From the IMG/VR virus record IMGVR_UViG_3300030108_000869, positions 1 to 53,888 of that record: a stretch of 53,888 nt of DNA; one strand, given 5' to 3'. The number at the start of each line of letters is the position of its first letter. Position 1 is the first letter of the stretch. Below are positions 3,187 to 46,998 of the stretch, one piece after another. A program made the position numbers and the translations under genes. The notes beneath the pieces are model-generated. The model had not been told where the DNA came from. It was given only the letters and a program-made list of their open reading frames with translations, and ran no database searches. The DNA is from a virus. Lineage: Duplodnaviria > Caudoviricetes.

Positions 3187-3528
3187 ATGGCTAAAGTAAC
3201 CGCATCAACTGTACTAAAAGAAGCCGCTGAACTTAAAGAAAAGAAGCAGGTAGACTATCAAGGTGATAGATATACTGAAGAAGATTATTTCCCATTCGGC
3301 AATATATCTTACTTACACATGATTCATACTAAGTACTTAAGAATTATGAACTTAGCACAATCAGATGGAACAACTAACTTTGAATCTCTCGAAGATTCAC
3401 TCACAGATATGTCAGTATACTGTGCAATGTTTTCTGCATACTTACAGAATAAAAAGATGGAAGAAAACGATTATGATATAAAAGAAGCAAGCATTATAGA
3501 CAAAATTAATTTTGAGAAAGGCTTATAA
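3187..3528 (+). CDS. DUF1599/Nmad1-like alpha-helical nucleotide-modification-associated protein
   Basis: KKQVDY..KYLRIMNL..ESLEDSLTDMSVYC pattern. Confidence 0.6.
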   Translation: MAKVTASTVLKEAAELKEKKQVDYQGDRYTEEDYFPFGNISYLHMIHTKYLRIMNLAQSDGTTNFESLEDSLTDMSVYCAMFSAYLQNKKMEENDYDIKEASIIDKINFEKGL

Positions 3529-3760
3529 AGTGCAACATAAAAATCTATTTGATCACAATAAATTTGGTGATGCTATTAAATACAATGTATTAGTATGCAA
3601 ACAACAATATTCTGAAAAGAAAATTGCAATCAAAGTAGAAGAAATTGAATCAATTGAAGAATGGAATAATGATTCTTTATGTGTATACATGAGATCAGGT
3701 ACCAGACTTTATGTTGAAGGTAACCTAACAGATATATTCGCAGATAAGAAAGGTATATAA
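3512..3760 (+). CDS. hypothetical protein
   Basis: 82 aa ORF, start uncertain. Confidence 0.55.
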   Translation: MRKAYKVQHKNLFDHNKFGDAIKYNVLVCKQQYSEKKIAIKVEEIESIEEWNNDSLCVYMRSGTRLYVEGNLTDIFADKKGI

Positions 3761-3762
3761 CT

Positions 3763-4014
3763 ATGAGTATGACTAGACAAAACTTTGAAGCACTCGCAGA
3801 AATGTGTGCAGATGAAACTAACGAAGAATTACTTTGTGAAGCTACTATTGATTTACTTGCAGCTTTTTGCAGATCTCAAAATAGTAGATTTGATTCTACA
3901 AGATTTCATAGTAGAATCGCTAGCCTCAAAGCTAAACGTAAACTACAACAACGTATGGCTATGAAAGGCGTTAACAAAGAATGGTTTGATTCACATGTTG
4001 AGGTGATAATGTAA
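3763..4014 (+). CDS. hypothetical protein
   Basis: 83 aa; MTRQNFEALA..NSRFDSTRF pattern common in small phage proteins. Confidence 0.7.
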   Translation: MSMTRQNFEALAEMCADETNEELLCEATIDLLAAFCRSQNSRFDSTRFHSRIASLKAKRKLQQRMAMKGVNKEWFDSHVEVIM

Positions 4015-4865
4015 TGCAAGTATATAATCAAAAGTATTTAAATATAGCTGAAGATATACTAAGATACGGTCATCAAAGAGAAGGAAGGAATGGTGTAGTT
4101 CGCTCTATACCATTCCAAGATCTTATGTTTGATATGCGAAATGATTATTTTCCGCTAATAACATCACGTAAAATATACTATGATGGTGTATTTGGTGAAT
4201 ATGCCGCTATGATTAGAGGGCCTAAAAATATTAAAGACTTTCAGAAATGGGGGTGTAATTACTGGAATGAGTTCGGAGATCCTGATACTGGCGAGTTACG
4301 TCTTAGTTATGGTAATAGTTGGCTTGATTTTAATGGTGTTAATCAAATAGAAGAATTATTATATAATCTTAAACACCATAGATATGATAGAAGACATATA
4401 ATTACTGCATGGAATCCCGCAGATAAAGATCTTACACTACCACCATGTCATTTCTTATATCAATTTTATGTAGATCAAACTGTAGCATCATTTGATCATG
4501 CTAGAAACGGACCTAACGATAATGATACTTCAGATACTTTATCTATGATAATGTATTCGAGATCAGGTGATTGGATGGTTGGTGTACCTAGTGACATGGT
4601 ATTTGGTGCAACTATGTTAGCACATATATCTGCATTAGTTAACTTAAAACCTGGAACACTTAAATTATTTGTAGCAGATGCTCATATTTATCTTGAACAT
4701 TTTACAAAAGCCCAGGAGCAAATAGAAAATGGTTATCTATGGGTAGATGCTAAGTATAGCATACAGCCACAAGTAGGTTTAAACTATAATGAGTTTCAAC
4801 CAAAACATATGGACATATATAATTATGAACCTAGAGGAAATATAAAGTATGAACTTAAAACGTAA
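4014..4865 (+). CDS. thymidylate synthase-family enzyme, predicted dCMP (hydroxy)methylase
   Basis: DRRHIITAWN, LPPCH catalytic Cys, RSGD, DAHIY; Asp (GVPSD) at the position of E. coli ThyA Asn177. Confidence 0.85.
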   Translation: MQVYNQKYLNIAEDILRYGHQREGRNGVVRSIPFQDLMFDMRNDYFPLITSRKIYYDGVFGEYAAMIRGPKNIKDFQKWGCNYWNEFGDPDTGELRLSYGNSWLDFNGVNQIEELLYNLKHHRYDRRHIITAWNPADKDLTLPPCHFLYQFYVDQTVASFDHARNGPNDNDTSDTLSMIMYSRSGDWMVGVPSDMVFGATMLAHISALVNLKPGTLKLFVADAHIYLEHFTKAQEQIENGYLWVDAKYSIQPQVGLNYNEFQPKHMDIYNYEPRGNIKYELKT

Positions 4866-5382
4866 TGAAAATTATTCAGAATGGTATGATGACATTAGAA
4901 TAATGCATGATAAATTCGGTGCTAAAGAATGGGTTAGACGCCAATTCGAAGCAAGAAATTATAAATTATTAAATGATTTCTTAGCATTTAGATTAGACTT
5001 TTTAGAAGAAGAGTTTGAAGAAACTCAAGCAGCTTTCCTAAATAAAGATCACACAGAAGTAGTTGATGGTTTAATTGATCTTATTGTTATCGCAATAGGT
5101 ACACTAGAATTATTTAACTGTGATGCTGATAAAGTATGGAAAGAAGTACATAAATCTAATATGGCTAAAGAACCTGGAGCAAATAAATCCAGGAAAAATC
5201 CATTTGGTTTACCAGATATGGTTAAACCAGAAGGTTGGAAAGGACCTGAAATAACTAAATATGATTGCGGAATACTATCAGATATATTTGAATCAGAAAA
5301 AGAAAGACTTCAAATGTTAAGAGAAAAACGTGATCTTGAAAATGAATTCAAAGGTCAAGTAGCAAACTCACAATATGAATAA
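4849..5382 (+). CDS. MazG-like/PRA-PH-like NTP pyrophosphohydrolase
   Basis: EEEFEE..EVVDGLIDL..EVHKSNMAK..KPEGW. Confidence 0.85.
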   Translation: MNLKRNENYSEWYDDIRIMHDKFGAKEWVRRQFEARNYKLLNDFLAFRLDFLEEEFEETQAAFLNKDHTEVVDGLIDLIVIAIGTLELFNCDADKVWKEVHKSNMAKEPGANKSRKNPFGLPDMVKPEGWKGPEITKYDCGILSDIFESEKERLQMLREKRDLENEFKGQVANSQYE

Positions 5383-5391
5383 GGAGTATAT

Positions 5392-5592
5392 ATGAGTAAA
5401 GACGATTTACAAGAAACTAATGTTTCACCAGAAGCAGAACCAATTACACTTCATCAAATTAGAGCTATGATTGTAGGAGATGAAGATAAAGTAAAACTAT
5501 TAAATATATTTGATAATTTAGTAGCTGACAATAATAAACTTAAAGCTGAGCTTGATGCCGGCAGAAAGGCTAACGATGAGGCTAACGTTTGA
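5392..5592 (+). CDS. hypothetical protein
   Basis: 66 aa, AAGGAG RBS. Confidence 0.7.
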   Translation: MSKDDLQETNVSPEAEPITLHQIRAMIVGDEDKVKLLNIFDNLVADNNKLKAELDAGRKANDEANV

Positions 5593-7411
5593 TATAGAAA
5601 CGGACGGTCTTGATGCGACTAAAATATGGTGTCTAGTGATACAAAACCTGGACACCAATCGTATCATGAAATATACTGACGAATCAGATAAATATGATGG
5701 ACCTATTAAAATGGGTTTATCATTATTAGAAAATGCAAAATTATTAATAGCACATAATGGTATTGGTTTTGATGCATTAGTAATTAAAAGATTATATAAT
5801 ATTGATTTATATAATGGAGATAGGTTCTTCGATACATGGATAGCATCTCAAGTATTAAATTACAGACGACCACATAAACATGGGTTAGCTGGATGGGGTG
5901 AATATCTTAGATACCATAAAGGTAACTATGATGACTGGTCACATTTTTCTGATAGAATGATGGAGTATTGTGTAAGAGATGTTAAATTAAACTCTGTAAT
6001 ATATAGTCATCTTACATCAGAATTAAATAGAATAGCAATGAAGCAACCATTAATACGTAAAGGTTTACGAAATGAAATGGCTGCTGCTAAGTTTGATGCA
6101 TACTGTCAATACTATGGCTGGGCTTTTAATAAAGATAAAGCTAATTTATTATTAGATAATATTGAAAGTAACATGAATGCTATCGAAAAAGTAATTGAAC
6201 CTGAATTACCACCAGTTACTAGACTAATTGATAAGAAACCTAAGACACCTAAGTTTACTAAGAAAGGCGAATATACTGCAGCTACTGCACGTATGCTAAG
6301 TGAATTTCTTAATCAAGAAGTTAAACCTAATCATACATTTAAATGGGCAGCCGGTAGAGAGTTTCAAAGAAAAGAAACTAAGAAAGCTAACATGGGTAAT
6401 CTTGCACAAGTTAAAGAGTATCTATATTCAATTGGATGGGAACCTGATGATTGGAAAATGGAAAGATTAGGTAGAGAGTTCATTAAGAAAACACCTAAAC
6501 TTACATCAACTTCATTAGAAAAGCTTGGTGATAAAGGTAAAATGATTGATGAATGGACTACACTTAGATCACGTAGAGGTGTTGTTGAAGGCTGGCTTAA
6601 TAACTTAAAGAATAATAGATTACATGGTAAACTATGGATAATAGGTACACCTACATTTAGATGTCGCCATGAAGTTATTGCTAATCTTCCAGCAGCTAAT
6701 GCTAAACTTGGTAAATCAATTAGAGAATTACTAACAGCAGAACCTGGAAGAAAAATAGTAGGTGCTGACTCTAGTGGTAATCAATTTAGATCTCTTGCTC
6801 ATTATGTTAAAGATAAAAGTCTTACAAATCAAATACTTAGCGGTGATATTCATCAGTATAACGCAGACATTATTAATACTGATAGACGAACTGCAAAGAC
6901 TTGGATCTATGCATTTCTATTTGGTGCAGGTGCAACTAAACTTGGTAAAGTATTAACTGGTACTGGTAACTTAAGTGCTGGTAAAGATTCTATTGAAAGA
7001 TATGGTGATGCTATACCTGGTTTGAAATCATTAAAAGATAATCTAATATCAATGTGGAATATAGCAGACGGTCATAATAGAAATGTCGAAGGATATATTC
7101 CTGGTCTTGATGGTCGTAAAGTTTATGTACCGCAAGATTATCAAACACTTAACTATTTGTTACAAAGTTGCGAAGCTATAACTACAAAAGCTGCATTGTA
7201 TTATCAAATGAATAAGATTAAATCAGAACATCTTGATGCTGAACCTAGACTTTATTATCACGATGAAGTAGCATGGTCAGTAGCAGAAGAAGATGCTGAT
7301 AGAGTATTAGAAATACTTACAGAATCATTTGCCGAAGGTCCTAAAGAAATGGGCGTAGATATTATGGCAGGTGAAGGTACAATTGGTAATAACTACGCGG
7401 AGGTACACTAA
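5576..7411 (+). CDS. polA: DNA polymerase, family A (3'-5' exonuclease plus polymerase)
   Basis: FDIETDG, HNGIGFD, YCVRDV exo motifs; ADSSGNQFR, RRTAKTWIYAFLFG, YHDE; start revised to MRLTFD. Confidence 0.95.
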   Translation: MRLTFDIETDGLDATKIWCLVIQNLDTNRIMKYTDESDKYDGPIKMGLSLLENAKLLIAHNGIGFDALVIKRLYNIDLYNGDRFFDTWIASQVLNYRRPHKHGLAGWGEYLRYHKGNYDDWSHFSDRMMEYCVRDVKLNSVIYSHLTSELNRIAMKQPLIRKGLRNEMAAAKFDAYCQYYGWAFNKDKANLLLDNIESNMNAIEKVIEPELPPVTRLIDKKPKTPKFTKKGEYTAATARMLSEFLNQEVKPNHTFKWAAGREFQRKETKKANMGNLAQVKEYLYSIGWEPDDWKMERLGREFIKKTPKLTSTSLEKLGDKGKMIDEWTTLRSRRGVVEGWLNNLKNNRLHGKLWIIGTPTFRCRHEVIANLPAANAKLGKSIRELLTAEPGRKIVGADSSGNQFRSLAHYVKDKSLTNQILSGDIHQYNADIINTDRRTAKTWIYAFLFGAGATKLGKVLTGTGNLSAGKDSIERYGDAIPGLKSLKDNLISMWNIADGHNRNVEGYIPGLDGRKVYVPQDYQTLNYLLQSCEAITTKAALYYQMNKIKSEHLDAEPRLYYHDEVAWSVAEEDADRVLEILTESFAEGPKEMGVDIMAGEGTIGNNYAEVH

Positions 7412-7887
7412 TGATTGTAGATATCGCAATAACTAAAGATTTTATAAATCAACGTGATGCTCGCGCTGAAATATATAATCCAAGAAACAGATCATTCGAA
7501 CAATTAAAACTTGATATTGAATGTGAAGTATTTGAATGGCATATGATTGACAGAGGTACTTGGCAAGATCATATTGACTGGCAAGTTGATGGTGTTGATC
7601 AATTATATGGTAATGTAGATGTTAAGTTTATTAAAACCTGGTATAATATTCCATGTAATAAAATGATTTATTTATTAAAGCAAAGAGATTTAACAGATAA
7701 CTTTTACTTTTGTGAATGGCATGAAAGACCTCAACGATTATTAGTTGCAGGTGACATGGTTAAAGTTAATACTCTTGGTATACTAGAATACTGGGAACTA
7801 ATGGATATAATTAAACCTTCTAAATATAACGGATTTTATGCAGATATTCGTAAACATTTAGAAAGAAAGGATAAAGATGCAAACTAA
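7411..7887 (+). CDS. PD-(D/E)xK endonuclease resembling T4 endonuclease IV (DenB)
   Basis: NP..E.FE, WQVD..YGNVDVK core; C-terminal IIKPSKYNGFYADI matches recalled DenB VVRKSNYNGWYLSI. Confidence 0.6.
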   Translation: MIVDIAITKDFINQRDARAEIYNPRNRSFEQLKLDIECEVFEWHMIDRGTWQDHIDWQVDGVDQLYGNVDVKFIKTWYNIPCNKMIYLLKQRDLTDNFYFCEWHERPQRLLVAGDMVKVNTLGILEYWELMDIIKPSKYNGFYADIRKHLERKDKDAN

Positions 7888-8659
7888 ACATATGTTTGTA
7901 GATACAGATTCTATATTCTTTAAGATTGCATACAAATCTAAGAATCAATCTGAGCTACGTAAAAACTTTAATAGTTTTTGTAACAACATGATAATGGAAG
8001 TTTCTGATAAAATAATTAATCCTTTTACTGAAGAAATAAATGTTTTATACGCAGTTAAAGGTAAAGGAAACTATCGTAAAGATTTAAGTCCTGATTACAA
8101 ATCAAACCGTCCTGATCTTGATAAGAAAGTAAGAGATAAATTAAATTACTTACATAGATATTCAGTATCTAAAGGTGCTATTCAAGCAGATGGTATGGAA
8201 GCAGATGACTTAGTTTCTATATGGGCACACGAAGCTCTCGATAGAAAAGAAGAATATGTAATTTGTGGTATAGATAAAGATTTACTACAGATACCAGGTC
8301 ATCATTACAATTATGGTAAAGATACTTGGCAGCTTATTAATGAAGAAGAAGCATTACATAATCTATATATTCAATGTTTGACTGGTGATAATACAGATAA
8401 TATTCCAGGTCTAAAAGGTATTGGTCCTAAGAAAGCTCAAAAGATATTAGCTGGTGTACCATTATCAAGACAATGGAATAAAGTTAAATCTGCCTGGAAA
8501 GAACACGGAGAAACTGAAAAGCAATTAGAACTTAGTCATAAGTTATTGCGGATGCTAAAATCATGGGAAGAATATGAAGATATTAAAGCATACATTCAAG
8601 ATAAAACCGTTGTCAGCAAATCAAATGACATACAGGAACAAGTCGATAAAGTCAGCTAA
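7877..8659 (+). CDS. 5'-3' exonuclease/RNase H (T7 gp6-like)
   Basis: YKSNR, EADD, DKDL, GDNTDNIPGLKGIGPKKA. Confidence 0.92.
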   Translation: MQTKHMFVDTDSIFFKIAYKSKNQSELRKNFNSFCNNMIMEVSDKIINPFTEEINVLYAVKGKGNYRKDLSPDYKSNRPDLDKKVRDKLNYLHRYSVSKGAIQADGMEADDLVSIWAHEALDRKEEYVICGIDKDLLQIPGHHYNYGKDTWQLINEEEALHNLYIQCLTGDNTDNIPGLKGIGPKKAQKILAGVPLSRQWNKVKSAWKEHGETEKQLELSHKLLRMLKSWEEYEDIKAYIQDKTVVSKSNDIQEQVDKVS

Positions 8660-8996
8660 GTATATCGAATATCAAAATGAATTAAGAGATGAACTTCAAG
8701 GGGTCAAATGGCCCTTTGAAAAGTCTGATCAATTAGAATTTGATATTATTGCTGGTGTATCTAATAAGATGGCAGACCTAGATAATGTGGTTAAGCCACT
8801 ATTAGATACATACCAGGGTATATTTGAAGAATTTAATGACAATAAAGTTTATCATATAACATTAGATAAACAAATAGTAACTAAAGGTAATGAATATTTA
8901 TTTGTTAAAGTCGAACGATGGCCTGAACAAATACCTTTAGAAATAGTAAACGACGAAGAGTTGTTAGAAAGGACAGTACTTCATGTCAAGGTATAA
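8574..8996 (+). CDS. RusA-like Holliday junction resolvase
   Basis: KPLSAN, DLDNVVKPLLD, NDNKV. Confidence 0.8.
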   Translation: MKILKHTFKIKPLSANQMTYRNKSIKSAKYIEYQNELRDELQGVKWPFEKSDQLEFDIIAGVSNKMADLDNVVKPLLDTYQGIFEEFNDNKVYHITLDKQIVTKGNEYLFVKVERWPEQIPLEIVNDEELLERTVLHVKV

Positions 8997-10602
8997 ACAA
9001 ACAGCATGTCCCGAATGTAATTCATCAGATGCATTTACAATCTATGAAGATGGTGCATACTGTTTCTCATGTCAATACTCAACTAAGAAAGTAAACATTA
9101 TGAATGACTTAGAAACTGTTGCTGATAATAAAGATCAGCTAACATTAACCGATATATCAGAGCTAAATAGTTTTGCAATTACATCTCGTGGTATATCTAA
9201 ACAAGTTGTAGATCACTTTGGAATTAAGATGGCAGTAAATCCTGATGGTTCCGGTGGTTCACACTTCTATCCTTACACTGCTAATGGTAAGGTAACAGTA
9301 GTTGCATATAAAGAACGTAAGTTACCTAAAAACTTTATAGTACATGGTAACTTTAATAATATAGAATTGTTTGGCCAATCAGTTGCTAGCGGTGGTAAAA
9401 CACTTGTTATAACTGAAGGTGAACTAGATGCTTGTGCTATTGCACAAAGCTTTTTAGATAAATACAATAAAATATTTCCAGTAGTATCTATACCAAGTGC
9501 ATCTGGTTGTAAAGTTATACTTGAACAAAGAGAATGGATTAGACGATTTGAATCCGTAATATTATTCTTTGATAAAGATGATGCTGGGCAAGCTGCTGTA
9601 CAAAAAGTAGCTAAGATAATTGGTGCAGATAAAGTTAAAGTTGCACAGTTAACAGAGAAAGATCCTTGTGAACAATTATTAAAACATGGATCAGCTAGCT
9701 TATTACAAGCTTATTGGAACGCAGAAACCTGGTCTCCAGCTGGTATTGTAATGGGTGAAAAGATTTGGCGTGAATATATCGAAAGAAAGAACACTGAATC
9801 TATTCCATATCCTGAATGCTTAGAAGGATTAAATGAAAAACTTAAAGGAATACGTCATGGCGAAATTACTTTATTTACTTCAGGTACGGGTTCCGGTAAG
9901 AGTACAGTTGTTAAAGAGATTGTGCTTAACTTACTCGCTAAGACTACTGATAAGGTCGGTCTCATATCTCTCGAAGAATCCGTCGGAGATACCGCTGAGA
10001 AATTTATTAGCATGTACTTACAAAATAATAACTTACACGAAGAAGGTGTGTCAGAAGAGCGACAAAGACATGGATTTTCATCTGTATTTGGAACTGAAAA
10101 GCTTGTACTGCTTGACCACCAAGGTTCCGTCGGAGACGACAGTCTCATTGATAAGATTGAATATATGGCTCTTATGGGTTGTAAGTATATGGTTCTTGAC
10201 CACATTACCATCGCAGTTAGTGAGGGTAGTGAAGGGCTAAGTGGTAACGAAGCCATTGATAAAGTTATGAGTGACTTACTTAAGATAGTTAAGAAGCATA
10301 ACATATGGTTATGTTTAATATCTCATCTTAGAAAAGCTCCAGGTGGTGGCATGTCTTTTGAAGAAGGTAAGTTAGCATCCATCGATGATATTAAAGGTAG
10401 TGGTTCTATCAAACAAATATCATTTGACATAGTAGCATTTGCTAGAAACTTAGTAGCTGAAAATAGTATTGAAAGAAACACTATTAAGTTTAGAGTATTG
10501 AAATCTAGATTTACTGGTCTTACTGGTTCAGCTGGTTCTGCTACTTATGATAATAACACAGGTAGGCTTACAGCAGTAAGTCAGGAATTTAGTAGTTTAT
10601 GA
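8983..10602 (+). CDS. primase-helicase (T7 gp4-like)
   Basis: CPEC..CFSC Zn finger, TOPRIM ITEGELD/FDKDDAG, Walker A SGTGSGKST, LDHITI, KGSGSIKQ, KSRFTG. Confidence 0.95.
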   Translation: MSRYKQTACPECNSSDAFTIYEDGAYCFSCQYSTKKVNIMNDLETVADNKDQLTLTDISELNSFAITSRGISKQVVDHFGIKMAVNPDGSGGSHFYPYTANGKVTVVAYKERKLPKNFIVHGNFNNIELFGQSVASGGKTLVITEGELDACAIAQSFLDKYNKIFPVVSIPSASGCKVILEQREWIRRFESVILFFDKDDAGQAAVQKVAKIIGADKVKVAQLTEKDPCEQLLKHGSASLLQAYWNAETWSPAGIVMGEKIWREYIERKNTESIPYPECLEGLNEKLKGIRHGEITLFTSGTGSGKSTVVKEIVLNLLAKTTDKVGLISLEESVGDTAEKFISMYLQNNNLHEEGVSEERQRHGFSSVFGTEKLVLLDHQGSVGDDSLIDKIEYMALMGCKYMVLDHITIAVSEGSEGLSGNEAIDKVMSDLLKIVKKHNIWLCLISHLRKAPGGGMSFEEGKLASIDDIKGSGSIKQISFDIVAFARNLVAENSIERNTIKFRVLKSRFTGLTGSAGSATYDNNTGRLTAVSQEFSSL

Positions 10603-11039
10603 ACGAAGAAAAACAACGTAGATATGATGAATTATATTTAGATATAGCTACGAGGATAAGTTTAATGTCTCACGATACTGATCACAAGGTAGGATCAGTT
10701 ATCGTTAGAGATAATAATATACTTGCGTTTGGATTTAATGGCATGCCTACAGGTATGAATAATAACTGTAAGAATGCTAATGGTTCTACTAAACAAGAAG
10801 TTATACATGCAGAAGCTAATGCTATCTGCAAGTTAGCGAGGAGCACGGGGAGCTCTGAGGGTGCTACATTATATAGCACTCTCTCCCCTTGTGTGGAATG
10901 CGCTAAGCTCATAATGCAAAGTGGTATAACTAGAATTATATTTAGAGAAACATATAAAGATGAAGCAGGTATTTTACTACTATTAAATAATAATAAAGAA
11001 GTGAAGGGCATAAAATGGAAGGACAACTTAAGTATCTAA
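10599..11039 (+). CDS. dCMP deaminase
   Basis: VGSVIV, GFNG, HAEANAI, SPCVEC. Confidence 0.92.
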   Translation: MNEEKQRRYDELYLDIATRISLMSHDTDHKVGSVIVRDNNILAFGFNGMPTGMNNNCKNANGSTKQEVIHAEANAICKLARSTGSSEGATLYSTLSPCVECAKLIMQSGITRIIFRETYKDEAGILLLLNNNKEVKGIKWKDNLSI

Positions 11040-20400: not shown

Positions 20401-21553
20401 CTTCACCTTCCATTTCATTCCAGTTTTGTCCTGCATATACTGAAACAGGTGCAAGCATACTAACACCAACATTAGATAACGCAGCAACTCCTGTAGCACT
20501 TGCTAAAGATGTACCACCAGTTACTGGGGCTAATGCAGCACCACCTATAGTTACACCCATATAAGGTAAAGCCATAGCTGTCATGTTTCCCATATACTCA
20601 AAGAAACCGCCCACACCATCTATATCCCATTCATTTCCTATAACATTACCATCATTATCTAACTTATATTTTAGTATATTATTTTTTACTTCAGGTTTGT
20701 TAGCAAGATATTTGTGTTGTCTCTTAATACCTTCTTGACCAAGTTCTTCTAACCAATTAATACCAGTTTTTTCGCCAATCATATTAGCCATACCATAGGC
20801 ACCTTCAATAACACCAGTCCATCCTGTGTCAAAACTTTCAGACCAAGGATGAAGTGCTTTGTTTTGAAGTGTTCTATCGCTATGTCTTTTCTGAACTAAA
20901 CTATTACTATAATCTGCTGCTCTTCTTTTTCTTAAAGCATACATAGCATTTGATTCACCAGGTTGTCTTTCAGCATTTAATCTAGCTAATGTTTGTTCAT
21001 CAAGTGCTACTCTTTTAAATTCAGTTTCATAAAACTTTTCACTGTCTGCCATTTGATTAATAGCTATTCTTGCTTTATCAAACTGATCTAAGCTTTCATC
21101 TTGTAAATCAGGTGTACCTTCAGCTCTAAGCATTGCACCTATTTGTGCTGCTTGTATTTCTTCAGGTGAACTAAACCTATTTAGTTTACCTATACCATAT
21201 GAATTTAAAGTTTCTACAAAATCTCTACCATCTGGATCAGTAATTCTAACTAACTGTCTAGTACCAGTGGCATCCATCATAGGTGTACCATCTGGATTTG
21301 TAAGATAATGTACGTTATTAAAATCAAATTGTTCTGCTAGGTTTCTAATTTGTTTAGTAGCTTCCCAACCACCAGCAGTTCCAGGTTTTAAATTACCATC
21401 TATCATACGCATTATTTCGGGTGCACTCAAACCTTGTAGTCTAAGAAGATTACCTTCTTTATTTATAAGAGTATCACCATCAATAAAGCGATGTTCCATA
21501 TTATCTATAGGTGGTGGTTTATCAAAACCTGACACATCTATATTAATAGCCAT
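17456..21553 (-). CDS. large internal virion/ejection protein (gp16-like) with N-terminal SNase-like domain
   Basis: 1365 aa; IDGDT..RLQGLSAPE; C-terminal LFTQFQGF and hydrophobic helices. Confidence 0.7.
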   Translation of the reverse strand: MAINIDVSGFDKPPPIDNMEHRFIDGDTLINKEGNLLRLQGLSAPEIMRMIDGNLKPGTAGGWEATKQIRNLAEQFDFNNVHYLTNPDGTPMMDATGTRQLVRITDPDGRDFVETLNSYGIGKLNRFSSPEEIQAAQIGAMLRAEGTPDLQDESLDQFDKARIAINQMADSEKFYETEFKRVALDEQTLARLNAERQPGESNAMYALRKRRAADYSNSLVQKRHSDRTLQNKALHPWSESFDTGWTGVIEGAYGMANMIGEKTGINWLEELGQEGIKRQHKYLANKPEVKNNILKYKLDNDGNVIGNEWDIDGVGGFFEYMGNMTAMALPYMGVTIGGAALAPVTGGTSLASATGVAALSNVGVSMLAPVSVYAGQNWNEMEGEDKNASLAVAAGVTMSVLDRLGLKGLMGGAKGTLLDSKYRDDMIQAYKQANPGATDDMAKVAIGNMTRKESAKLAGDVVKVAKDQLKFGNLLKNFSKNAARGFGIESSTELGQELTGYMAAVYGSDKPFDSVELSNRLINAYIAGGTLGAGFSVPGTAYNAGAWADVAVRQAPAEDKRLSQEGKWAEEEMALNNGIQRSNKDIAEEAKKKARARPLSPSDDFNTMADAGERQAKDRDIWSSVKETAKELPFLWKGAMPHLFWKDSFQSKAIRKLGSIVNGYLHRIHSGETFEEYKHLQLAEYKNMAMTPSQVAQALGKSTRDPIRDSKIIYAFGRWLVSKGDPTKIMNIDWNTLPTDFEGEFDLKANEKFLREYYVKINKLGNKLFNDQVKAEEEYSDGTSTGRQSKLRDNNGKERFTKNYLLKYKSLNKSKIEKKKNEFIKALQDEFGFTLDSATDLTNDILDNNEMVDQESIFQVGKGKHVPAQFKRRSLGLSERTRFDQFMEEDHFVNISNAAKSATRFIAYEKFLGDNNEVFAQLLREAKAEGLSEERANRIAAGLRNYLQAESGNYKRIENKTLENIQKKILVWTTLAGLPLATVSSFVEFMMTMRALTPEQIRTVIATAAKEFAQALWSGITNPGINSTQARLNKEKRQARLQKLGFFDWDVGASQTTGATENTYASRYLLDKYFRVIGLQQWTDYTRNIRASIADSFILDHLNTIQIARQSGEPKTNEVQEAEEQLRNLGINVGRLLELSNQPVGVKPNESIQDYRLRRSQTDAELDRIFMHAQYNFVNEAIALPGTANRPLFYNNPHIALFTQFQGFIATFTANQIPRMWGDYVKRGTPAMKYNAFAVMTTMVMLGFVSQYLKDLLKYGMATPYLDRAEVIQRGIGASGLIGVAERPLNFFFPIYETSSSNMVEELFQTVSGEAAALSNITRAATGVGQVIEGKTETGIYKILKTMPIIGPVNQLNRNIAELFA

Positions 21554-24500
21554 TAGTTAACTCCACTTAGTTTATTAGTAATATCAATTACAAATAATGC
21601 ATACGGTGTTAGTCCTTCATTTTCAGGTTTCTTTGCAGCTTCTTCATATTCTTTTCGCCATAATTTACCTGTGTCTGGATTAATACCTTTAGGTTTACCA
21701 TCTTTAGTTGTGCCACGGTTATTCCAAATATCGGCTGCTTCATTATAAAATTGATTAATATCCTGAGATACTGATTTAACTCTATCATTAATATTCATTA
21801 GAGTATCTGTATCTACTTGAACAACTTCATCTCCAACTTTAGCTTGAGTTAAACCTGGAACCATTATATCTAATCTTTGTTTTATAGTAGCTTCTTCTAA
21901 GTAAGGTATAAGTGATTCAGCTTTAGAAGGTGGCTTACCATCTGGAGGATTAGTAAAGTTTTCAGCAGCAGCTATAACTGCCATTTTTAAACCAGGACCT
22001 AATCTTTGTAATGATATACCATTTTCTTGTGCCCAAAAAGCAATTTCTTCAGCTGAATTAGCAGGTGTTAAGTTAGTATAGTCCTCATATATTTTAGCTT
22101 TTGTTGTTTTATTAACACCAGTTAGCTTACGTGCATGCTTATTTAAAAGCTCTTCCATTTGATCTTTAATATTAGGAATCTTTTTTCTAGCTGCCTCATT
22201 AAATTGATCACTACCTTTTACTTTACTACCATCTTCACTATAGCCTGCACCTATTCTGCTCTTACCATTTATATCAAATGACCAGTAAGTAAGATCACCT
22301 TCACCTGTTTTAATTTTAAACTGATAAGCCATTCTACCAGAAGGCCCAGTGTCTTTACCAAACCATGGTTTTCTTTCACCAGTACTTCTAACCTTTGCAC
22401 CTTTAGGTATTAATGTGCTATAGTCACCTCGAGAATCTTTAAATGCTTGTAAAGATATAGGCTCAAACTTATCTGCATTATCAGCTATATACTTATCTAT
22501 TTGAGCTGTCTTAGCATCTACTCTTTTAAGATACTGTTTAGCAACATAGTTAATTGAGCTGTTATGGTCATAACCTAATGCTCTTGAACCTAAGTAAACA
22601 GCAGCAGCCCTTCCAATTTCTTTAGCATCTATAAGATCACCAAATAAAAACTTCATAGCATCTTTAGCTTTTTGTACATTAGGATTCTTTGGATCATTAG
22701 CTCCAGATGTATTTATAATACTTGCATTATTAGCTAAGTCGGTAGAAATCTTATTAGCTGTTGCATCATCTATTTTACTAGCAGCATTATTTAAATTAGC
22801 TTCAGATTCATTAGCCTCAGCTTTATTTATTATATTAGTTATTTTAGCTGACTCAGTTTTTTCGTATTCTGCTTTAAGAGCATTTAGTCTTTCTTGAGCT
22901 AAATCTTTTTCAGATTTAGTAGCATCTTTATCTGTTAATATTTTTTCATTTTTTTGTATTGCCATTATAAGATCTGCATCCTTAACCTTTGCTTTAAATA
23001 AAGGTTCCGGACCTTCTCCAGGTGCTACAGCTAATTTAGTAGCTAGCATTGATTCTTCTTCAGATAATTTATTTTCAAAATCTAATATTTCTTTTCTAAG
23101 TCGTGCTACTTTTTCTGCATACTTAGGATCATTAGGATTTAAATTAGTAATTGATTTATCTCTATCTTTTATTCGCGATTTTAATCCTTTAATTGAGCTT
23201 CTTACAGCACCTATCTCACGCTTATCATTTTTTGCAAAAGCATCATCATAAATATTTCTTCTTGGAAGATTTATTATATCACCAGTATCATCATCATACA
23301 TATTTTCATCTACTGCCTCATATGGTGGTGGCATTTCCATACCTAATTCTTCCATACCTAATCCTTGAGGATCATATGAATAATTTCCTACAAATGTTTG
23401 TTGATCTAATGGTAACATATCAGATACATCTTCTTCAAAACCTGTAACTTTAGTATTACTTCTACCAATAGGATCTGGAATATTACTTTCCATAACCATA
23501 TCATCAGCACCAAAAGGTATAGGTTTAATTATTTCCGGTACACTTGGAGAATCTTCAAATGATATAGTTGTTGAATCATCTTCAGGTACTTGAACAGAAC
23601 TTAACGGATTATCATTTAATATTTCATTAGCTTTAGCTACATTTTGTTGTGAATCAAATATAAGCTTCATTATATCATCATCCATTGCAGAAGTAGTTTG
23701 ACCTGTAGTTCCATATATTTTACCACCAGGATCTAAGTGCACTGCACCACCTTCTTTAAAAGGATTTACTTTTTCTGGCTTAGTAAACTTAAAACCAATA
23801 TCATTTGGATCTATAAAATCTTTTACACTTTCAACAATGCTAGTAGCTTTTTCTTTAATACCACTAAAGGGATTAGGAATGTTAAGACTAAATCCATCTG
23901 AACTGGGAGGCACTTGTATTCCTGCCTCTCTATACTTATCATAAACTGAAGGATCACCAAATACTTTATTATCTATTAATTCTTTTATTTCTTCAGCTTT
24001 ATTAGCTCTTCTATCGGCATGAGGAATACCTGGTTTTAAATGTTTATTCATTATATCTAAAGCTATAGCTTTAGCATCTTTATTAGCAAATGACTCTTGT
24101 AAATTTTCAGCATTTGTTTTACCTATCCTAAAACCACTTTCATTTTTAGGATGAGGTACAGCATCTTTATTATATATACTTTGTACAAAATAATCTAACT
24201 GAGAAGCCATAGAATCTTTTTTATTATTTGCTTTTAAATAATTTAAATAAGGTTTCTTTTGTTCATCAAATTGAAATAGTCCCATACCTGGGCCCATTTG
24301 ATCACCAGTATTTTCATTTTGTCTAGTAGTGTACTCATAAGTATAACCAGTTTCTACACCTATATTACCCATAATACCCGCAATAGCATCATCAGTTAAC
24401 TGGGGATAGTTTTCTTTTAAGTAATTATAAATATCAGATTGTCTGCTTCTTTTATTTTTAAATTTCTCTCCAGCTATAACATCTTTACTAGGCTTAGGTA

Positions 24501-24792
24501 CAGGCATGCCAACTTCTGCATACTCAGGTTTCATATTTTGTATTTCTCTACCGTGGTCATTCATCTTTTTAATTATAGGACCGTATATATCTGTAGCTTC
24601 TTTGTTTACTACAAACTCACCAGGAGTAAGCCAAGCTGGTACAGTGTCAGTACCTTTAGGTTCTCCAGGATGATCATACATAGGTATTGAGGAAGTCATA
24701 GGAGGAACTTCCATTTGTCCTTCTGTAATATCAAACTCGAAAGACCTCATATTCCCATAGCGATCTTTTTGTGTAAACTTCTTTAACTTCAT
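21553..24792 (-). CDS. internal virion/ejection protein with phage tail lysozyme domain
   Basis: AIAGIMGNIGVETG..GMGLFQF lysozyme motif; GTDTVPAWLTPGEFVV. Confidence 0.75.
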   Translation of the reverse strand: MKLKKFTQKDRYGNMRSFEFDITEGQMEVPPMTSSIPMYDHPGEPKGTDTVPAWLTPGEFVVNKEATDIYGPIIKKMNDHGREIQNMKPEYAEVGMPVPKPSKDVIAGEKFKNKRSRQSDIYNYLKENYPQLTDDAIAGIMGNIGVETGYTYEYTTRQNENTGDQMGPGMGLFQFDEQKKPYLNYLKANNKKDSMASQLDYFVQSIYNKDAVPHPKNESGFRIGKTNAENLQESFANKDAKAIALDIMNKHLKPGIPHADRRANKAEEIKELIDNKVFGDPSVYDKYREAGIQVPPSSDGFSLNIPNPFSGIKEKATSIVESVKDFIDPNDIGFKFTKPEKVNPFKEGGAVHLDPGGKIYGTTGQTTSAMDDDIMKLIFDSQQNVAKANEILNDNPLSSVQVPEDDSTTISFEDSPSVPEIIKPIPFGADDMVMESNIPDPIGRSNTKVTGFEEDVSDMLPLDQQTFVGNYSYDPQGLGMEELGMEMPPPYEAVDENMYDDDTGDIINLPRRNIYDDAFAKNDKREIGAVRSSIKGLKSRIKDRDKSITNLNPNDPKYAEKVARLRKEILDFENKLSEEESMLATKLAVAPGEGPEPLFKAKVKDADLIMAIQKNEKILTDKDATKSEKDLAQERLNALKAEYEKTESAKITNIINKAEANESEANLNNAASKIDDATANKISTDLANNASIINTSGANDPKNPNVQKAKDAMKFLFGDLIDAKEIGRAAAVYLGSRALGYDHNSSINYVAKQYLKRVDAKTAQIDKYIADNADKFEPISLQAFKDSRGDYSTLIPKGAKVRSTGERKPWFGKDTGPSGRMAYQFKIKTGEGDLTYWSFDINGKSRIGAGYSEDGSKVKGSDQFNEAARKKIPNIKDQMEELLNKHARKLTGVNKTTKAKIYEDYTNLTPANSAEEIAFWAQENGISLQRLGPGLKMAVIAAAENFTNPPDGKPPSKAESLIPYLEEATIKQRLDIMVPGLTQAKVGDEVVQVDTDTLMNINDRVKSVSQDINQFYNEAADIWNNRGTTKDGKPKGINPDTGKLWRKEYEEAAKKPENEGLTPYALFVIDITNKLSGVN

Positions 24793-29997: not shown

Positions 29998-31767
29998 TTA
30001 AGCACATTCCTTTTGACCAGTCTGCGGATCTATAAAACAAGCCTCAACTTGCTCCTCTTCTTTAACTGTCTCAAGCGCATTTGCGTTCTTCTCTTTTTCT
30101 TCCACGGTTTGAAGGACTCCGAATCGTTTACCACTAAGTCTAAACGTGGTACATCCTTTCGCCCCGCCTTTCCAGGCATCAACATAAACTTGTTTGAAAT
30201 CTTCATATGTAACTTCATCACCTACATTACAGGTTTTTGAACACGCACTATCTATATAGTTTTGTGCCAATAATAGTACAGCCAAATGCTCATTAACATT
30301 TATATCATTGGCTCCACGTCCTTCGATTCCTTTATTGTAAGCATAATCTTTTACTCTCTCTGTCTTAGGCCCTTCAAAAGTTTGTATAGTTCTATCATAG
30401 TAATGACTAAATACAGGTTCAATACCTCCACTAACATTATCAGCAACTAAACTAATAGTACCTGTTGGTGCTATTGAAGTTAAGTGACTATTACGAATTC
30501 CATATTCTCTAATTAATTTTTTAACTGAAGCTGGTAATCCTCGAACAAAGTTTGATTTTAAATAATCTTCTCTATATAATGGGAAGGCACCCTTTTCTTT
30601 TGCTAATAATGCGGATGCTTTATATGTAGTATCACGTAAACATGCAAATACTTTTTCAGCCCATATCATAAAATCTTCAGAAGCATATGGCTTACCAAGT
30701 AATTCACCAGCATTTGCTAAGCCAGTAACACCTAAGCCCATTCTTCTTTTATCTTTAGCTTCGTCAGCTTGTTTCTTTAATGGATAAATTGTTCTATCAA
30801 TAACATTATCCATAGCTCTTACTACTTCGTATATATCTGATTTAAATCTTTTGAAATCAAATTCAAAATGTGATTCAGCTACTTCACCACCTGCAATTTG
30901 TTCTTCATCTAAGTACTTTGTTAAATTAAATGAACCTAGTAAGCACGCGCCATATGGTGGTAGCGGTTGCTCACCACACGGATTTGTAGCAAATATATCT
31001 TCACAGTAATAAAGGTTATTCATTTCACCTATACGATCAATAAATAAAACACCAGGCTCAGCCCAGTCCCAAGTGCTATCCATGATTTTATCCCAAAGGT
31101 CTCTTGCGCATATCGTTCTGTATGGCTTTCCCTGGAATTCCAACGTAAAGCTGCTATCCAAATCATTAGTCAATGCCTCCATAAATTTATCAGTTATACC
31201 AACACTAATATTAAAACCAGTAAGCTTATCAGAATTACGTTTAGCCATAATGAATTCTTCAATATCCGGATGGTCGACTCTGAGGACACCCATCTGCGCC
31301 CCACGTCTGTGTCCTGAGCTAGCGATGGTTTGACACACAGCATCAAAGATACCCATGAAGGAAACAGGGCCGCTAGCCTGGCTATCGAGCGATTTAATTT
31401 TGTCACCTCTTGGTCGGATGCGACTAAAATCATAACCAATCCCACCCCCTCTACGCATTGTTTCAGCAGCTTCACTGGCCTTCTCCATTATACTGTTCAT
31501 GTTATCCTCGATTACTCCTGACACGAAACAGTTATATGCAGTTGTAATTCTATTAGATCCTATAGCAGCTTGTACTCTACCTGCTGGTAAGAATCTCATA
31601 TTGCCTAATATATCTTCTAGCTTATACCGATGTTCATCATCATCTGATAAAGTTCTTGATATTCTTTTAATTTTTTCATCAAAGCTTTCGTCTTTTTGTC
31701 TATATTTCATTTCATCTATTTCTTTTGATATAGATGATTCTGGTCCTAAATATTCTGTATTATGCAT
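29998..31767 (-). CDS. nrdJ: class II (B12-dependent) ribonucleotide reductase
   Basis: FLPAGRV, NCF, TNPCGEQPL, IAPTGTIS, C-terminal Cys pair; no beta subunit nearby. Confidence 0.9.
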   Translation of the reverse strand: MHNTEYLGPESSISKEIDEMKYRQKDESFDEKIKRISRTLSDDDEHRYKLEDILGNMRFLPAGRVQAAIGSNRITTAYNCFVSGVIEDNMNSIMEKASEAAETMRRGGGIGYDFSRIRPRGDKIKSLDSQASGPVSFMGIFDAVCQTIASSGHRRGAQMGVLRVDHPDIEEFIMAKRNSDKLTGFNISVGITDKFMEALTNDLDSSFTLEFQGKPYRTICARDLWDKIMDSTWDWAEPGVLFIDRIGEMNNLYYCEDIFATNPCGEQPLPPYGACLLGSFNLTKYLDEEQIAGGEVAESHFEFDFKRFKSDIYEVVRAMDNVIDRTIYPLKKQADEAKDKRRMGLGVTGLANAGELLGKPYASEDFMIWAEKVFACLRDTTYKASALLAKEKGAFPLYREDYLKSNFVRGLPASVKKLIREYGIRNSHLTSIAPTGTISLVADNVSGGIEPVFSHYYDRTIQTFEGPKTERVKDYAYNKGIEGRGANDINVNEHLAVLLLAQNYIDSACSKTCNVGDEVTYEDFKQVYVDAWKGGAKGCTTFRLSGKRFGVLQTVEEKEKNANALETVKEEEQVEACFIDPQTGQKECA

Positions 31768-46373: not shown

Positions 46374-46564
46374 TTCTTAACTACCTCTTTTTTAGGTTTT
46401 AATAGTGAATGGTATCTCTGTTGTAATTGATACAAATAATATAATTTATCACAGTTAAGTTTAGCTTTACCACCACTTCTGCTTGAATCATATTCTAATG
46501 TATTAATCATTTCTTCAATATTCTGTAATAATCTATCATAATCAATTTCTCTGATTATCATCAT
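46370..46564 (-). CDS. hypothetical protein
   Basis: 64 aa, coupled. Confidence 0.65.
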   Translation of the reverse strand: MMIIREIDYDRLLQNIEEMINTLEYDSSRSGGKAKLNCDKLYYLYQLQQRYHSLLKPKKEVVKK

Positions 46565-46883
46565 TGCCCTCCTTTAGGTATGGAATATTTTTTCCATATG
46601 TCTCGAAGTTTATCATTCTTTCTTTAACACTACCAAGTGCCATAGCTGAAGAGTAGAGGAACTCTCGAGATTTTGTTTCATGTGGTTCGGTCTTTAACCA
46701 CTCAACAAATAAGTCAATTAAGACTTCGCCATATACTTCATCAAAAAATTCATCTCGTTCTTTAGATGCGAAGTGCCCTTTAACATGGGCACGCCGCGCT
46801 AATTCTTCAGGATGTATTTTATGTTTACCGTATGACTTTTCATTACCCAGCCTCTTCTCAGCTGTCTCACGGTACTTATCCAT
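46542..46883 (-). CDS. conserved head-region protein
   Basis: WLKTEPHETKSREFLY; start revised to MDKY. Confidence 0.7.
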   Translation of the reverse strand: MDKYRETAEKRLGNEKSYGKHKIHPEELARRAHVKGHFASKERDEFFDEVYGEVLIDLFVEWLKTEPHETKSREFLYSSAMALGSVKERMINFETYGKNIPYLKEGNDDNQRN

Positions 46884-46884
46884 A

Positions 46885-46998
46885 CTAGCCGCCAAATATC
46901 ATGACTAGTGTTGGTGTAATTACTTCCTTTGCTAAACCAATAGCTAGTACAGCTTTGATGCCAAAACTAACTACGCCTGAAAATGTAATTGGATCCAT
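46885..46998 (-). CDS. 37 aa hydrophobic peptide
   Basis: read manually; GGAGGA RBS; MDPITFSGVVSFGIKAVLAIGLAKEVITPTLVMIFGG. Confidence 0.6.
   Translation of the reverse strand: MDPITFSGVVSFGIKAVLAIGLAKEVITPTLVMIFGG

Follow-up and report, generated by a model that had tools for sequence, protein, structure and literature searches.

Does the thymidylate synthase homolog encoded by this virus make dTMP, or has it been turned to another pyrimidine? The window analysed is the whole stretch of 53,888 nucleotides, and the gene lies at 4014–4865 on its + strand. The first-pass annotation had aligned an Asp codon of this gene with Asn177 of E. coli ThyA, had described the rest of the protein as ThyA-like, and had proposed that the product is 5-methyl-dCMP (or hm-dCMP), not dTMP.

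A ThyA-family enzyme with Asp at the specificity position

ORF 4014–4865 gives a stop-free translation of 283 aa, denoted P0001. Its start ATG overlaps the stop of the upstream gene (TAATG), and a GAGGTGA sequence lies 8 nt upstream of the start. P0001 matched Pfam PF00303 with an E-value of 1.8e-57 and 195 bits (curated cut-off 24.3), over profile positions 1–264 of 266. The AF2 model had a pLDDT of 93.9 and a pTM of 0.92, and Foldseek searches with this model returned as best matches solved canonical, methyl-transferring thymidylate synthases (TMq 0.83–0.89). The catalytic set is retained (R25, E62, W84, Y99, R126, R127, C145, H146, R183, S184, D186, H224, Y226). Within it, the residues by which the superfamily is recognised, namely the Cys of P-C-H, four phosphate-binding Arg, Glu58, Tyr94, His207 and Tyr209, are matched by C145, R25/R126/R127/R183, E62, Y99, H224 and Y226. 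Profile, fold and catalytic residues place P0001 in the thymidylate synthase/pyrimidine hydroxymethylase superfamily. The C-terminal tail (4836–4865, +; ending NIKYELKT before the stop) is as long as that of the E. coli enzyme, which closes over the folate. Together with the near-complete profile match, this bears out the description of a ThyA-like protein up to its C-terminal end.

HMMER alignments to solved thymidylate synthases set RSGDWMVGVPSD of P0001 opposite RSxDxxLGVPFN. The DNA at 4560–4595 reads aga tca ggt gat tgg atg gtt ggt gta cct agt gac (R S G D W M V G V P S D), and the GAC codon at 4593–4595 (+) specifies Asp194 at the place of Asn177, the position of pyrimidine specificity. 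A MAFFT alignment with E. coli ThyA gave the same correspondence, and also paired Cys145 with C146, Leu142 with L143, Asp186 with D169 and the last residue, Thr283, with I264. The placement of the Asp codon was therefore reproduced by both alignments. Asp194 is not a product of chance or of sequencing error, although Asn is one G>A change away: in a FastTree of 241 rows, 115 of the 121 rows in the clade of P0001 have Asp at 177 (six have Asn), and so do all 26 related loci inspected at codon level, written GAT in 23 and GAC in three. No variant at 4593–4595 was seen among the 40 differences listed (367 further) for assembled contigs from four runs.

Canonical ThyA (EC 2.1.1.45) reads uracil O4/N3 with Asn177, in place of which P0001 has Asp194. 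P0001 shares with E. coli ThyA the fold, the catalytic residues, Leu143 and the C-terminal tail. An alternative is that P0001 still functions as a thymidylate synthase, or methylates both dUMP and dCMP, the Asp being tolerated and dUMP coming from the phage dCMP deaminase (compare cd and td of T4). We regard this alternative as unlikely. It is favoured by an active site that is ThyA-like apart from Asp194, and by the score for the NCBIfam thymidylate synthase equivalog TIGR03284, where P0001 reached 118.8 bits, above the cut-off of 108.35; this score is also a point against a dCMP enzyme. P0001 fell below the cut-offs of TIGR03283 and of six NF-series equivalogs (e.g., NF002497, 143.8 versus 327). 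The six Asn-bearing clade members likewise support the alternative, since they imply that the clade scaffold can work either way. It is opposed by the fixation of Asp across the clade, even through synonymous codon change, and by the loss, in the subclade of P0001, of Gln165, which we take to be the residue that orients Asn177. Furthermore, N177D in thymidylate synthase switches the preference to dCMP, and engineered N177D and N229D mutants methylate dCMP, according to work cited in PMC8670742.

P0001 differs from the engineered E. coli N177D enzyme in that its Asp is natural and lineage-fixed, and in that Q165S, F176S, W83F and a 20-aa hairpin insert are also present. The three pocket substitutions, which the first-pass annotation had not mentioned and which are uncharacterised in any enzyme so far, weigh against assigning P0001 to dCMP. 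The insert is lineage-specific (4476–4544, +; residues ~155–177, ~20 aa), lies in the alignment at the beta-hairpin turn represented by 'ADGK' in E. coli, and is the sole low-confidence part of the AF2 model (block pLDDT 77 and 55).

Residues bearing on the product

Rules for phage ThyA homologs are set out in the available text of PMC13326640 and PMC6400193: Asp177 selects dCMP, a hydrophobic residue at 143 gives methyl and Asp or Glu at 143 gives hydroxymethyl, and D169N leads to a 5-hydroxy product. In P0001 the catalytic Cys (C146 of E. coli) lies in Leu142-Pro-Pro-Cys145 (4437–4448, +), with Leu at Cys-3 (position 143), where methyl and hydroxymethyl transfer are told apart. The GAT codon at 4569–4571 (+) gives Asp186 at position 169, and this residue is invariant in alignment A1. 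By alignment, Cys-3 is Asp in T4 gp42 and likewise in the dUMP hydroxymethylase of SP8. The enzyme of phage Xp12 has Asn there, not a bulky hydrophobic residue, so the rule for position 143 is firm only in its negative form, that is, as the lack of an acidic residue.

These positions bear on the possibility that P0001 is a dCMP hydroxymethylase like T4 gp42, giving 5-hydroxymethyl-dCMP for 5hmC or for a hypermodified cytosine. The two proteins belong to one superfamily and both have Asp at the specificity position, and P0001 has Ser98 beside Tyr99. Nevertheless, the published hydroxymethylase signature (PMC6400193) combines Asp or Glu at Cys-3 with Ser or Thr at Tyr-2 and a very short C-terminus. 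In T4 gp42 the first two positions hold Asp and Ser, residue 83 is Val, and there is almost no tail (a 5-residue end; described in the same source as lacking the C-terminal tail), whereas P0001 has Leu142, Leu97, a bulky Phe at 83 and a full-length tail. The D145N mutant of T4 dCH yields no 5hm-dCMP (PMC6400193), and the best structural matches of P0001 are thymidylate synthases. Pfam scans of the window found no glycosyltransferase, carbamoyltransferase or dioxygenase gene and no kinase; a transferase might be concealed among the many window ORFs to which no function is assigned. We consider a hydroxymethylase improbable, more so than a working thymidylate synthase. Leu at 143, Phe at 83, the full-length tail and the lack of glycosyl-, carbamoyl- or dioxygenase genes found in the window favour methyl over hydroxymethyl as the predicted product.

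Another C5 derivative would be still more surprising, and we give it very little weight. P0001 might make, for example, 5-hydroxy-dCMP, as in RB69 (gp48) and DLP3 (gp80), or act on ribo-CMP like MilA. Unexpected chemistries have lately been shown in this superfamily (PMC13326640, in the available text), and the pocket of P0001, with Ser at 165 and 176, is unusual. Asn at 169 marks the 5-hydroxy-dCMP synthases, and this diagnostic change is absent, Asp186 standing in its place. The determinants of MilA, Ala for S167 and Lys for R126 (PMC5175136), are absent from P0001, which has Ser184 and Arg126.

Genes around the enzyme

Two genes for MazG-like proteins flank the methylase candidate. MazG1 (4849–5382, +), of the MazG/PRA-PH type of nucleotide pyrophosphohydrolase and probably a dCTPase/dUTPase, starts within the end of the ThyA-like gene, with an overlap of 17 nt. 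It matched PF01503 (E 7.4e-11), phrog_671 and phrog_18404, as well as DR2231, a MazG-like NTP pyrophosphohydrolase (E 6e-6). The small MazG-like protein MazG2 (3187–3528, +) is encoded 486 nt upstream of the ThyA-like gene, which thus lies between two MazG genes. MazG2 gave no sequence match in Pfam, NCBIfam or PDB, and was assigned from PHROG 18404 (positions 166–258 of 264, E 3.5e-14) and from an alignment with Xp12. In Xp12 and phrog_18404 the protein has two domains, and MazG2 corresponds to its C-terminal half; it is 39% identical to the 3' part of Xp12 gene 46207–46980. Downstream of MazG1 is an ORF for a family A DNA polymerase (5552–7411, +), 79–94% conserved in relatives and the presumed user of a modified dNTP.

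A dCMP-deaminase-family protein of 146 aa (PF00383, E 1.7e-22; phrog_174) is encoded at 10599–11039 (+), 5.7 kb downstream of the ThyA-like gene and between the primase-helicase and RNA polymerase genes. It is 30% identical to the Xp12 deaminase. Its closest PDB match was 4p9c (1.9e-26), an ordinary cyanophage dCMP deaminase, followed by 7fh4 (1e-18). Both its distance and this resemblance speak against a dedicated 5mC pathway, as the protein could equally supply dUMP; its likeness to a conventional phage dCMP deaminase is a point for a working thymidylate synthase. Nucleotide supply is also represented by a ribonucleotide reductase large chain (29998–31767, −; PF02867, E 1.6e-107), which matched Xp12 by tblastn (7e-26).

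There is a single PF00303 match in the window, hence no second thymidylate synthase, and no ThyX was found there. The lack of another thymidylate synthase in the window is in keeping with the 5mC pathway proposed below; in a genome of ~66% A+T, it also favours the view that P0001 itself makes dTMP. No DHFR was recognised in the window, and Pfam and PHROG scans of its ORFs recognised no dNMP kinase. These two gaps count against a 5mC pathway, and in Xp12 a DHFR gene adjoins that of the enzyme; the missing dNMP kinase, however, does not separate the explanations, since the Xp12 record is also without an annotated one. For two conserved ORFs of unassigned function, 7411–7887 and 939–1433, ESM Atlas gave weak leads (<0.9), PD-(D/E)XK/DpnI-like in the case of 7411–7887. 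No dNMP kinase emerged from these look-ups.

Association of Asp177 enzymes with MazG-like and deaminase genes

We examined 80 IMG/VR loci, 61 with Asp177 and 19 with Asn177. For deaminase genes at a distance of up to 6 kb the counts were 42/61 Asp177 loci versus 2/19 Asn177 loci, and for MazG-like genes at up to 1 kb they were 48/61 versus 1/19. A DHFR homolog was present in one of the 61 Asp177 loci. The cassette has been described before: in the available text of a preprint, Yang et al. 2024 (bioRxiv 10.1101/2024.12.05.627091), who also mined IMG/VR, report it in cytosine-modified metavirome contigs. In their survey 104 of 149 deaminases on cytosine-modified contigs were located within 3 kb of a thymidylate synthase homolog, versus 17 of 277 on unmodified contigs, and PRA-PH and DNA_pol_A were the top domains neighbouring the deaminase in modified contigs. 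Their cassette unites an Asp177 thymidylate synthase, PRA-PH, DNA_pol_A and a 5mC-selective deaminase; the window shares with it the domain neighbourhood and the prediction rule. The window differs in the position of the deaminase, which at 5.7 kb is beyond their limit of 3 kb either side. The much higher frequency of deaminase and MazG-like genes beside Asp177 than beside Asn177, in our 80 loci as in their data, argues against a plain thymidylate synthase. Of seven Asp177 enzymes assayed by Yang et al., five synthesised 5mdC and two gave none detectable, and the latter result counts both against a dCMP methylase and for the thymidylate synthase alternative. One deaminase in their study turns 5mdCTP into dTTP.

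Xp12, a phage with fully 5mC DNA (PMC7653180), is a close known parallel in residues and context. Its enzyme (MT664984, 45326–46195) made 5mdC in vivo (Yang et al. 2024). Among the features of Xp12-type dCMP methylases, P0001 has Asp177, a non-acidic residue at 143 (Leu142), Asp169 (Asp186) and a tail of the thymidylate synthase type. When the 95 ORFs in the window that encode 60 aa or more were compared with Xp12 by tblastn, only five were shared, namely MazG2, MazG1, the ThyA-like enzyme, the deaminase and ribonucleotide reductase, and the first four stand together beside the Xp12 enzyme. In both phages, therefore, the enzyme is accompanied by MazG/PRA-PH and dCMP-deaminase homologs, the only shared genes besides ribonucleotide reductase. 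That this cassette is common to a 5mC phage also tells against the thymidylate synthase alternative. The two enzymes differ at position 147 (Pro in Xp12, His in P0001), at Cys-3 (Asn, Leu) and at 176 (Tyr, Ser); in addition, Xp12 has one two-domain MazG and an adjacent DHFR, where the window has MazG split into two genes around the enzyme and no DHFR found.

In all five phages compared, a PRA-PH domain directly adjoins the Asp177 enzyme. Gp35 of Pelagibacter phage Kolga is 43% identical to P0001, has Asp177, falls in its clade and has PRA-PH adjacent, with no deaminase. Pseudoalteromonas phage PH1 and Edwardsiella phage KF-1 also have Asp177, clade membership and adjacent PRA-PH, and here the deaminase is present. 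Roseobacter phage CRP-7 serves as a natural control: it has the same replication backbone (RNA polymerase 35% identical) and neither PF00303 nor PF00383.

Taken together, residues and context make it probable that ORF 4014–4865 encodes a folate-dependent deoxycytidylate C5-methyltransferase (5-methyl-dCMP synthase), a thymidylate synthase retuned to dCMP that acts in a 5mC-DNA pathway; both the enzyme class and the cassette are already known from Xp12 and Yang et al. 2024. Every available sequence-level test agrees on dCMP over dUMP, in support of the product first proposed for this gene. The assignment derives from signature residues and from context rather than from orthology, since P0001 and the Xp12 enzyme share 22% identity over 221 residues and stand on separate long branches, that of Xp12 outside the clade of P0001. 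An alignment and a tree with ThyA, T4 gp42 and phage enzymes had been suggested as a check; the alignment upheld the equivalence of Asp194 and N177, but the positions of Xp12, T4 gp42 and SP8 in the tree are unreliable owing to their long branches, and we make no claim on a single or multiple origin of Asp177.

A predicted route to 5mC DNA

A mechanism can be proposed from the conserved residues, and a pathway from the cassette, Xp12 and the available text of Yang et al. 2024. Cys145 would attack C6 of dCMP, and Asp194, replacing the uracil-reading Asn, would read and protonate cytosine N3/N4. Methylene-tetrahydrofolate would be opened by Glu62, and removal of the C5 proton would be aided by Tyr99. 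Leu142, Phe87 and the full-length tail may exclude water, such that the folate hydride reduces the exocyclic methylene; the products would be 5-methyl-dCMP and dihydrofolate. The flanking MazG-like pyrophosphatases would convert dCTP, and possibly dUTP, to the monophosphate, feeding the methylase and keeping plain C out of the DNA. A presumed kinase, together with host NDP kinase, would then yield 5mdCTP, from which the phage DNA polymerase would make 5mC DNA. The deaminase homolog may turn part of the 5-methyl-dC nucleotide pool into thymidine nucleotides, in which case no dUMP-type thymidylate synthase would be needed.

A wider picture is tentative, and we hold it with somewhat less than even confidence. 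It describes a widespread marine podovirus lineage, kin to roseophage CRP-7 and pelagiphage Kolga, in which all cytosine would be 5mC and T would derive from deamination of 5-methyl-dC nucleotides without a dUMP-type thymidylate synthase. The dCTPase would have been split in two, with one gene on each side of the methylase. Within the replication module, divergence would be fastest in the methylase segment, which may have been exchanged. If this is true, surface-ocean waters would commonly contain viral DNA with full 5mC substitution. Pipelines name P0001 'thymidylate synthase', as it passes TIGR03284 and as the isolates in its clade are all so annotated; reading positions 177, 143 and 169 jointly alters the predicted biology, and a nucleotide-supply gene would become a marker of genomes with 5mC in place of C. 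Such replacement would bear on resistance to host restriction, and would affect methylation-sensitive library preparation and bisulfite, EM-seq and nanopore analyses of marine viromes. The lineage may also be a source of dCMP methylases and 5mC-selective deaminases, a kind of enzyme already in use in methylome sequencing.

Distribution

The clade of P0001 is large, with at least 115 Asp-bearing cluster representatives recovered. Dickeya phage Amaethon (36% identity to P0001) and Vibrio phage VPMS1 (35%) were found as tblastn matches, through which alone they are known here. The available literature on Kafunavirus/Amaethon and on Kolga reports no DNA modification; the GC content given for Amaethon is 39.8%, far below that of its host. 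Megablast of window positions 1–25000 against the phage collection gave no match. Sequence of the phage was present in 20 runs from 12 studies, with no RNA runs listed among them, and those plainly labelled were marine or aquatic.

P0001 is a thymidylate synthase homolog with Asp at position 177

The ORF at 4014-4865 (+) encodes P0001, a protein of 283 amino acids; its ATG overlaps the preceding stop codon (TAATG) and a GAGGTGA ribosome-binding site is found 5' of it. P0001 matches the Pfam Thymidylat_synt profile over positions 1-264 of 266 (E 1.8e-57), as well as PHROG 160 and over 100 thymidylate synthases of known structure. Window DNA 4560-4595 translates as RSGDWMVGVPSD, in which codon 4593-4595 reads GAC (Asp194), and the alignment placed Asp194 on Asn177 of E. 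coli ThyA (sequence from the K-12 record). The first-pass annotation, which had noted Asp at Asn177, was therefore exact on this point.

A word-indexed search yielded 139 relatives of P0001 at E <= 1e-10, and an exhaustive HMMER search 7,668 at E <= 0.001. A FastTree was computed from 241 full-length rows after the position-177 column had been taken out; in it P0001 falls in the starred clade (98) of 121 rows. Residue 177 is Asp in 115 of these rows and Asn in six, VPSD being the commonest reading at the Asp site (most rows). All 26 related loci carry an Asp codon, GAT in 23 and GAC in three, indicating that Asp is kept through synonymous change. Among the cultured phages in the clade are Kolga of Pelagibacter (43% identity), PH1 of Pseudoalteromonas and KF-1 of Edwardsiella, which the Asp177 check covers; additional tblastn matches come from Dickeya phage Amaethon and Vibrio phage VPMS1. 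In all five the annotation is thymidylate synthase, and the reading of P0001 is useful as an annotation correction. Six nested clade members (P0125, P0139, P0077, P0137, P0159 and P0152) have Ser-Asn at 176-177, and an IMG/VR locus, L082, also reads SN there, with a MazG-like gene 708 nt off and no deaminase at the locus; they could represent a return to specificity for dUMP.

Active-site residues point to a dCMP methylase

Position 177 sets the substrate, Asn selecting dUMP and Asp dCMP, according to mutagenesis cited in PMC8670742. As described in PMC6400193, an acidic residue three before the catalytic Cys (Cys-3; Leu143 in thymidylate synthases) activates water for hydroxymethyl formation, and T4 dCH is without the C-terminal tail, which in thymidylate synthases closes off the active site so that hydride can be transferred. 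At the diagnostic sites, in ThyA numbering, P0001 has Asp194 (177), Leu142 (143), Asp186 (169) and Phe at the Trp83 position, and its C-terminal tail stops in the same alignment column as E. coli Ile264. T4 gp42 and SP8 dUMP hydroxymethylase carry Asp at Cys-3, whereas P0001 has Leu142 in the same alignment; with this non-acidic residue and a full-length tail, it is improbable that P0001 is a hydroxymethylase. Still more improbable is some other chemistry: newly found 5-hydroxy-dCMP synthases are marked, as PMC13326640 reports, by Asn at 169, where P0001 has Asp186, and the ribo-CMP determinants of MilA (PMC5175136) are absent from P0001. Only the absence of an acidic Cys-3 residue is a safe rule, because the proven methylase of phage Xp12 has Asn there and not the Leu of P0001.

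The AlphaFold2 model of P0001, made from a 72-sequence alignment (pLDDT 93.9, pTM 0.92), has ordinary thymidylate synthases as its top PDB matches (TMq 0.83-0.89). Together, Asp194, Leu142, Asp186, the Phe at W83, the full tail and the thymidylate-synthase-like model point to 5-methyl-dCMP as the predicted product, and P0001 is probably a dCMP methylase. Of the two products first proposed, 5-methyl-dCMP or hm-dCMP, the methyl form is thus retained and the hydroxymethyl form disfavoured. Three substitutions relative to E. coli ThyA, Q165S, F176S and W83F, are uncharacterised.

The gene neighbourhood resembles that of the 5mC phage Xp12

MazG1 (4849-5382, +), a PRA-PH/MazG-type pyrophosphatase gene whose protein resembles the MazG-like NTP pyrophosphohydrolase DR2231, overlaps the 3' end of the P0001 gene, and the small MazG-like gene MazG2 (3187-3528, +) lies upstream. 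DNA polymerase A (5552-7411, +) follows MazG1. Twenty-two IMG/VR loci from this phage group retain the gene order, including the position of the dCMP-deaminase homolog further downstream. A PRA-PH domain directly adjoins the Asp177 enzyme in all five unrelated phages compared (Kolga, MW202665, PH1, KF-1 and Xp12), four of which have a deaminase, Kolga being the exception.

The comparison with Xp12, whose DNA contains 5mC by LC-MS as reported in PMC7653180, is the most telling of the context evidence. Among the 95 window ORFs that are 60 aa or longer, only five match Xp12: MazG1, MazG2, P0001, the dCMP-deaminase homolog and ribonucleotide reductase. In Xp12 the MazG parts, methylase and deaminase form one block, the two MazG parts are fused in a single 257-aa protein and a DHFR gene adjoins the deaminase, whereas in the window MazG occupies two genes and the deaminase lies apart (10599-11039, +), between the primase-helicase and T7-like RNA polymerase genes; neither a dNMP kinase nor DHFR was recognised among the window ORFs by Pfam/PHROG scans, or by ESM Atlas look-ups of two conserved ORFs. 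The window deaminase is closest in likeness to ordinary cyanophage dCMP deaminase, which would suit P0001 being a conventional or dual thymidylate synthase. We consider this unlikely, as Asp194, the residue rules and the cassette shared with Xp12 support the dCMP-directed enzyme proposed at first pass.

MazG2 resembles the C-terminal half and MazG1 the N-terminal half of a two-domain protein (Xp12 46207-46980; PHROG 18404); the gene looks split, with its halves on either side of the methylase, and the Kolga arrangement is alike. MazG1 and MazG2 could plausibly form a heterodimeric pyrophosphatase. Roseophage CRP-7 (L036, MK613349), whose RNA polymerase is the closest among isolates (35% identity), shares with the window the order DNA polymerase, exonuclease, primase, RNA polymerase, then very large minus-strand ORFs, and retains a MazG-domain gene; it lacks both the ThyA homolog and the deaminase.

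Association of Asp177 with deaminase and MazG genes

Of at least 584 IMG/VR matches to a pattern that itself demands L-P-[CP]-C-H, we scored the best 80, using deaminase and MazG profiles seeded from Asp177 phages; in these loci, which are not phylogenetically independent, a deaminase lay within 6 kb in 42 of 61 Asp177 and 2 of 19 Asn177 loci, and a MazG-like gene within 1 kb in 48 and 1, respectively. When the 80 loci were restricted to those flanked on each side by 3 kb or more, the counts were 30 of 41 and 2 of 16 for the deaminase, and 30 and 1 for the MazG-like gene.

Yang et al. (2024; bioRxiv 10.1101/2024.12.05.627091) report that, in metavirome contigs chosen for their modified cytosine, a thymidylate synthase homolog is found no more than 3 kb from 104 of 149 deaminase genes, compared with 17 of 277 in unmodified contigs; the top co-located domains they give are thymidylate synthase, MafB19-deam, PRA-PH, and DNA_pol_A with its exonuclease. 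With T4 gp1 co-expression in E. coli, 5mdC was produced by five of their seven enzymes and also by that of Xp12. The two negatives count against P0001 being a dCMP methylase and, with the unrecognised dNMP kinase and DHFR, the ordinary-type deaminase and the uncharacterised substitutions, account for the likelihoods we assign to this prediction from sequence. One deaminase in their report converted 5mdCTP to dTTP and left dCMP untouched; in their model 5mC replaces C and some of the 5mdCTP is deaminated to supply dTTP. The window locus agrees with this model and introduces no new principle. An Asp177 methylase could serve to flag abundant marine phages whose genomes probably carry 5mC.

Genome layout, divergence and occurrence

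The 53,888-bp IMG/VR record is a complete or nearly complete phage record (CheckV completeness estimate 96%) with a GC content of ~32-35%. Early and replication genes occupy the plus strand at 1-13.2 kb, including a tRNA-His (anticodon GTG; 2291-2364, +), and structural genes the minus strand. Within the minus-strand block are the ribonucleotide reductase large chain (29998-31767, -; PF02867, E 1.6e-107), a 1,079-aa ORF with a phage tail lysozyme domain (21553-24792, -), an Hsp20/alpha-crystallin family protein between the portal and scaffold genes (47008-47430, -; PF00011, E 7.7e-20; phrog_432) and a 2,127-aa ORF (34826-41209, -) with a C-terminal Peptidase_S74 intramolecular chaperone domain, which is probably a tail fibre or spike. 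Between DNA polymerase and exonuclease lies a conserved ORF of 158 aa (7411-7887, +) that gave no family match and only weak ESM Atlas leads (0.87-0.88) to DpnI-like and PD-(D/E)XK clusters.

Twenty runs from 12 studies contain 50% or more of the words sampled from window 3187-11039; those plainly labelled are marine or aquatic, and the record may itself derive from one of the 20. Contigs from three of four compared runs (X3, X10 and X15) cover the methylase gene, and X7 barely does. Among related phages (L014-L035) methylase identity is 50-70%, far below that of neighbouring genes (MazG1 70-98%, DNA polymerase 79-94%, RNAP 86-90%). In two environmental contigs of a single run, 74 differences fall within 3187-5397 in the first and 16 within 6926-9097 in the second. 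Comparison of 3187-5400 with 5552-11039 suggests fast evolution or exchange of the methylase segment.

The sole low-confidence part of the P0001 model is a lineage-specific insert of ~20 residues at a beta-hairpin turn (~155-177 of P0001; window 4476-4544), with many Asp, Asn, Thr and Ser residues, which is absent from 263-aa relatives and of intermediate size in those of 270-272 aa. Environmental contigs also carry a net in-frame 3-nt insertion at window 4421-4425, near P0001 residues 136-138, in agreement with the 284-aa relatives P0002 and P0003.
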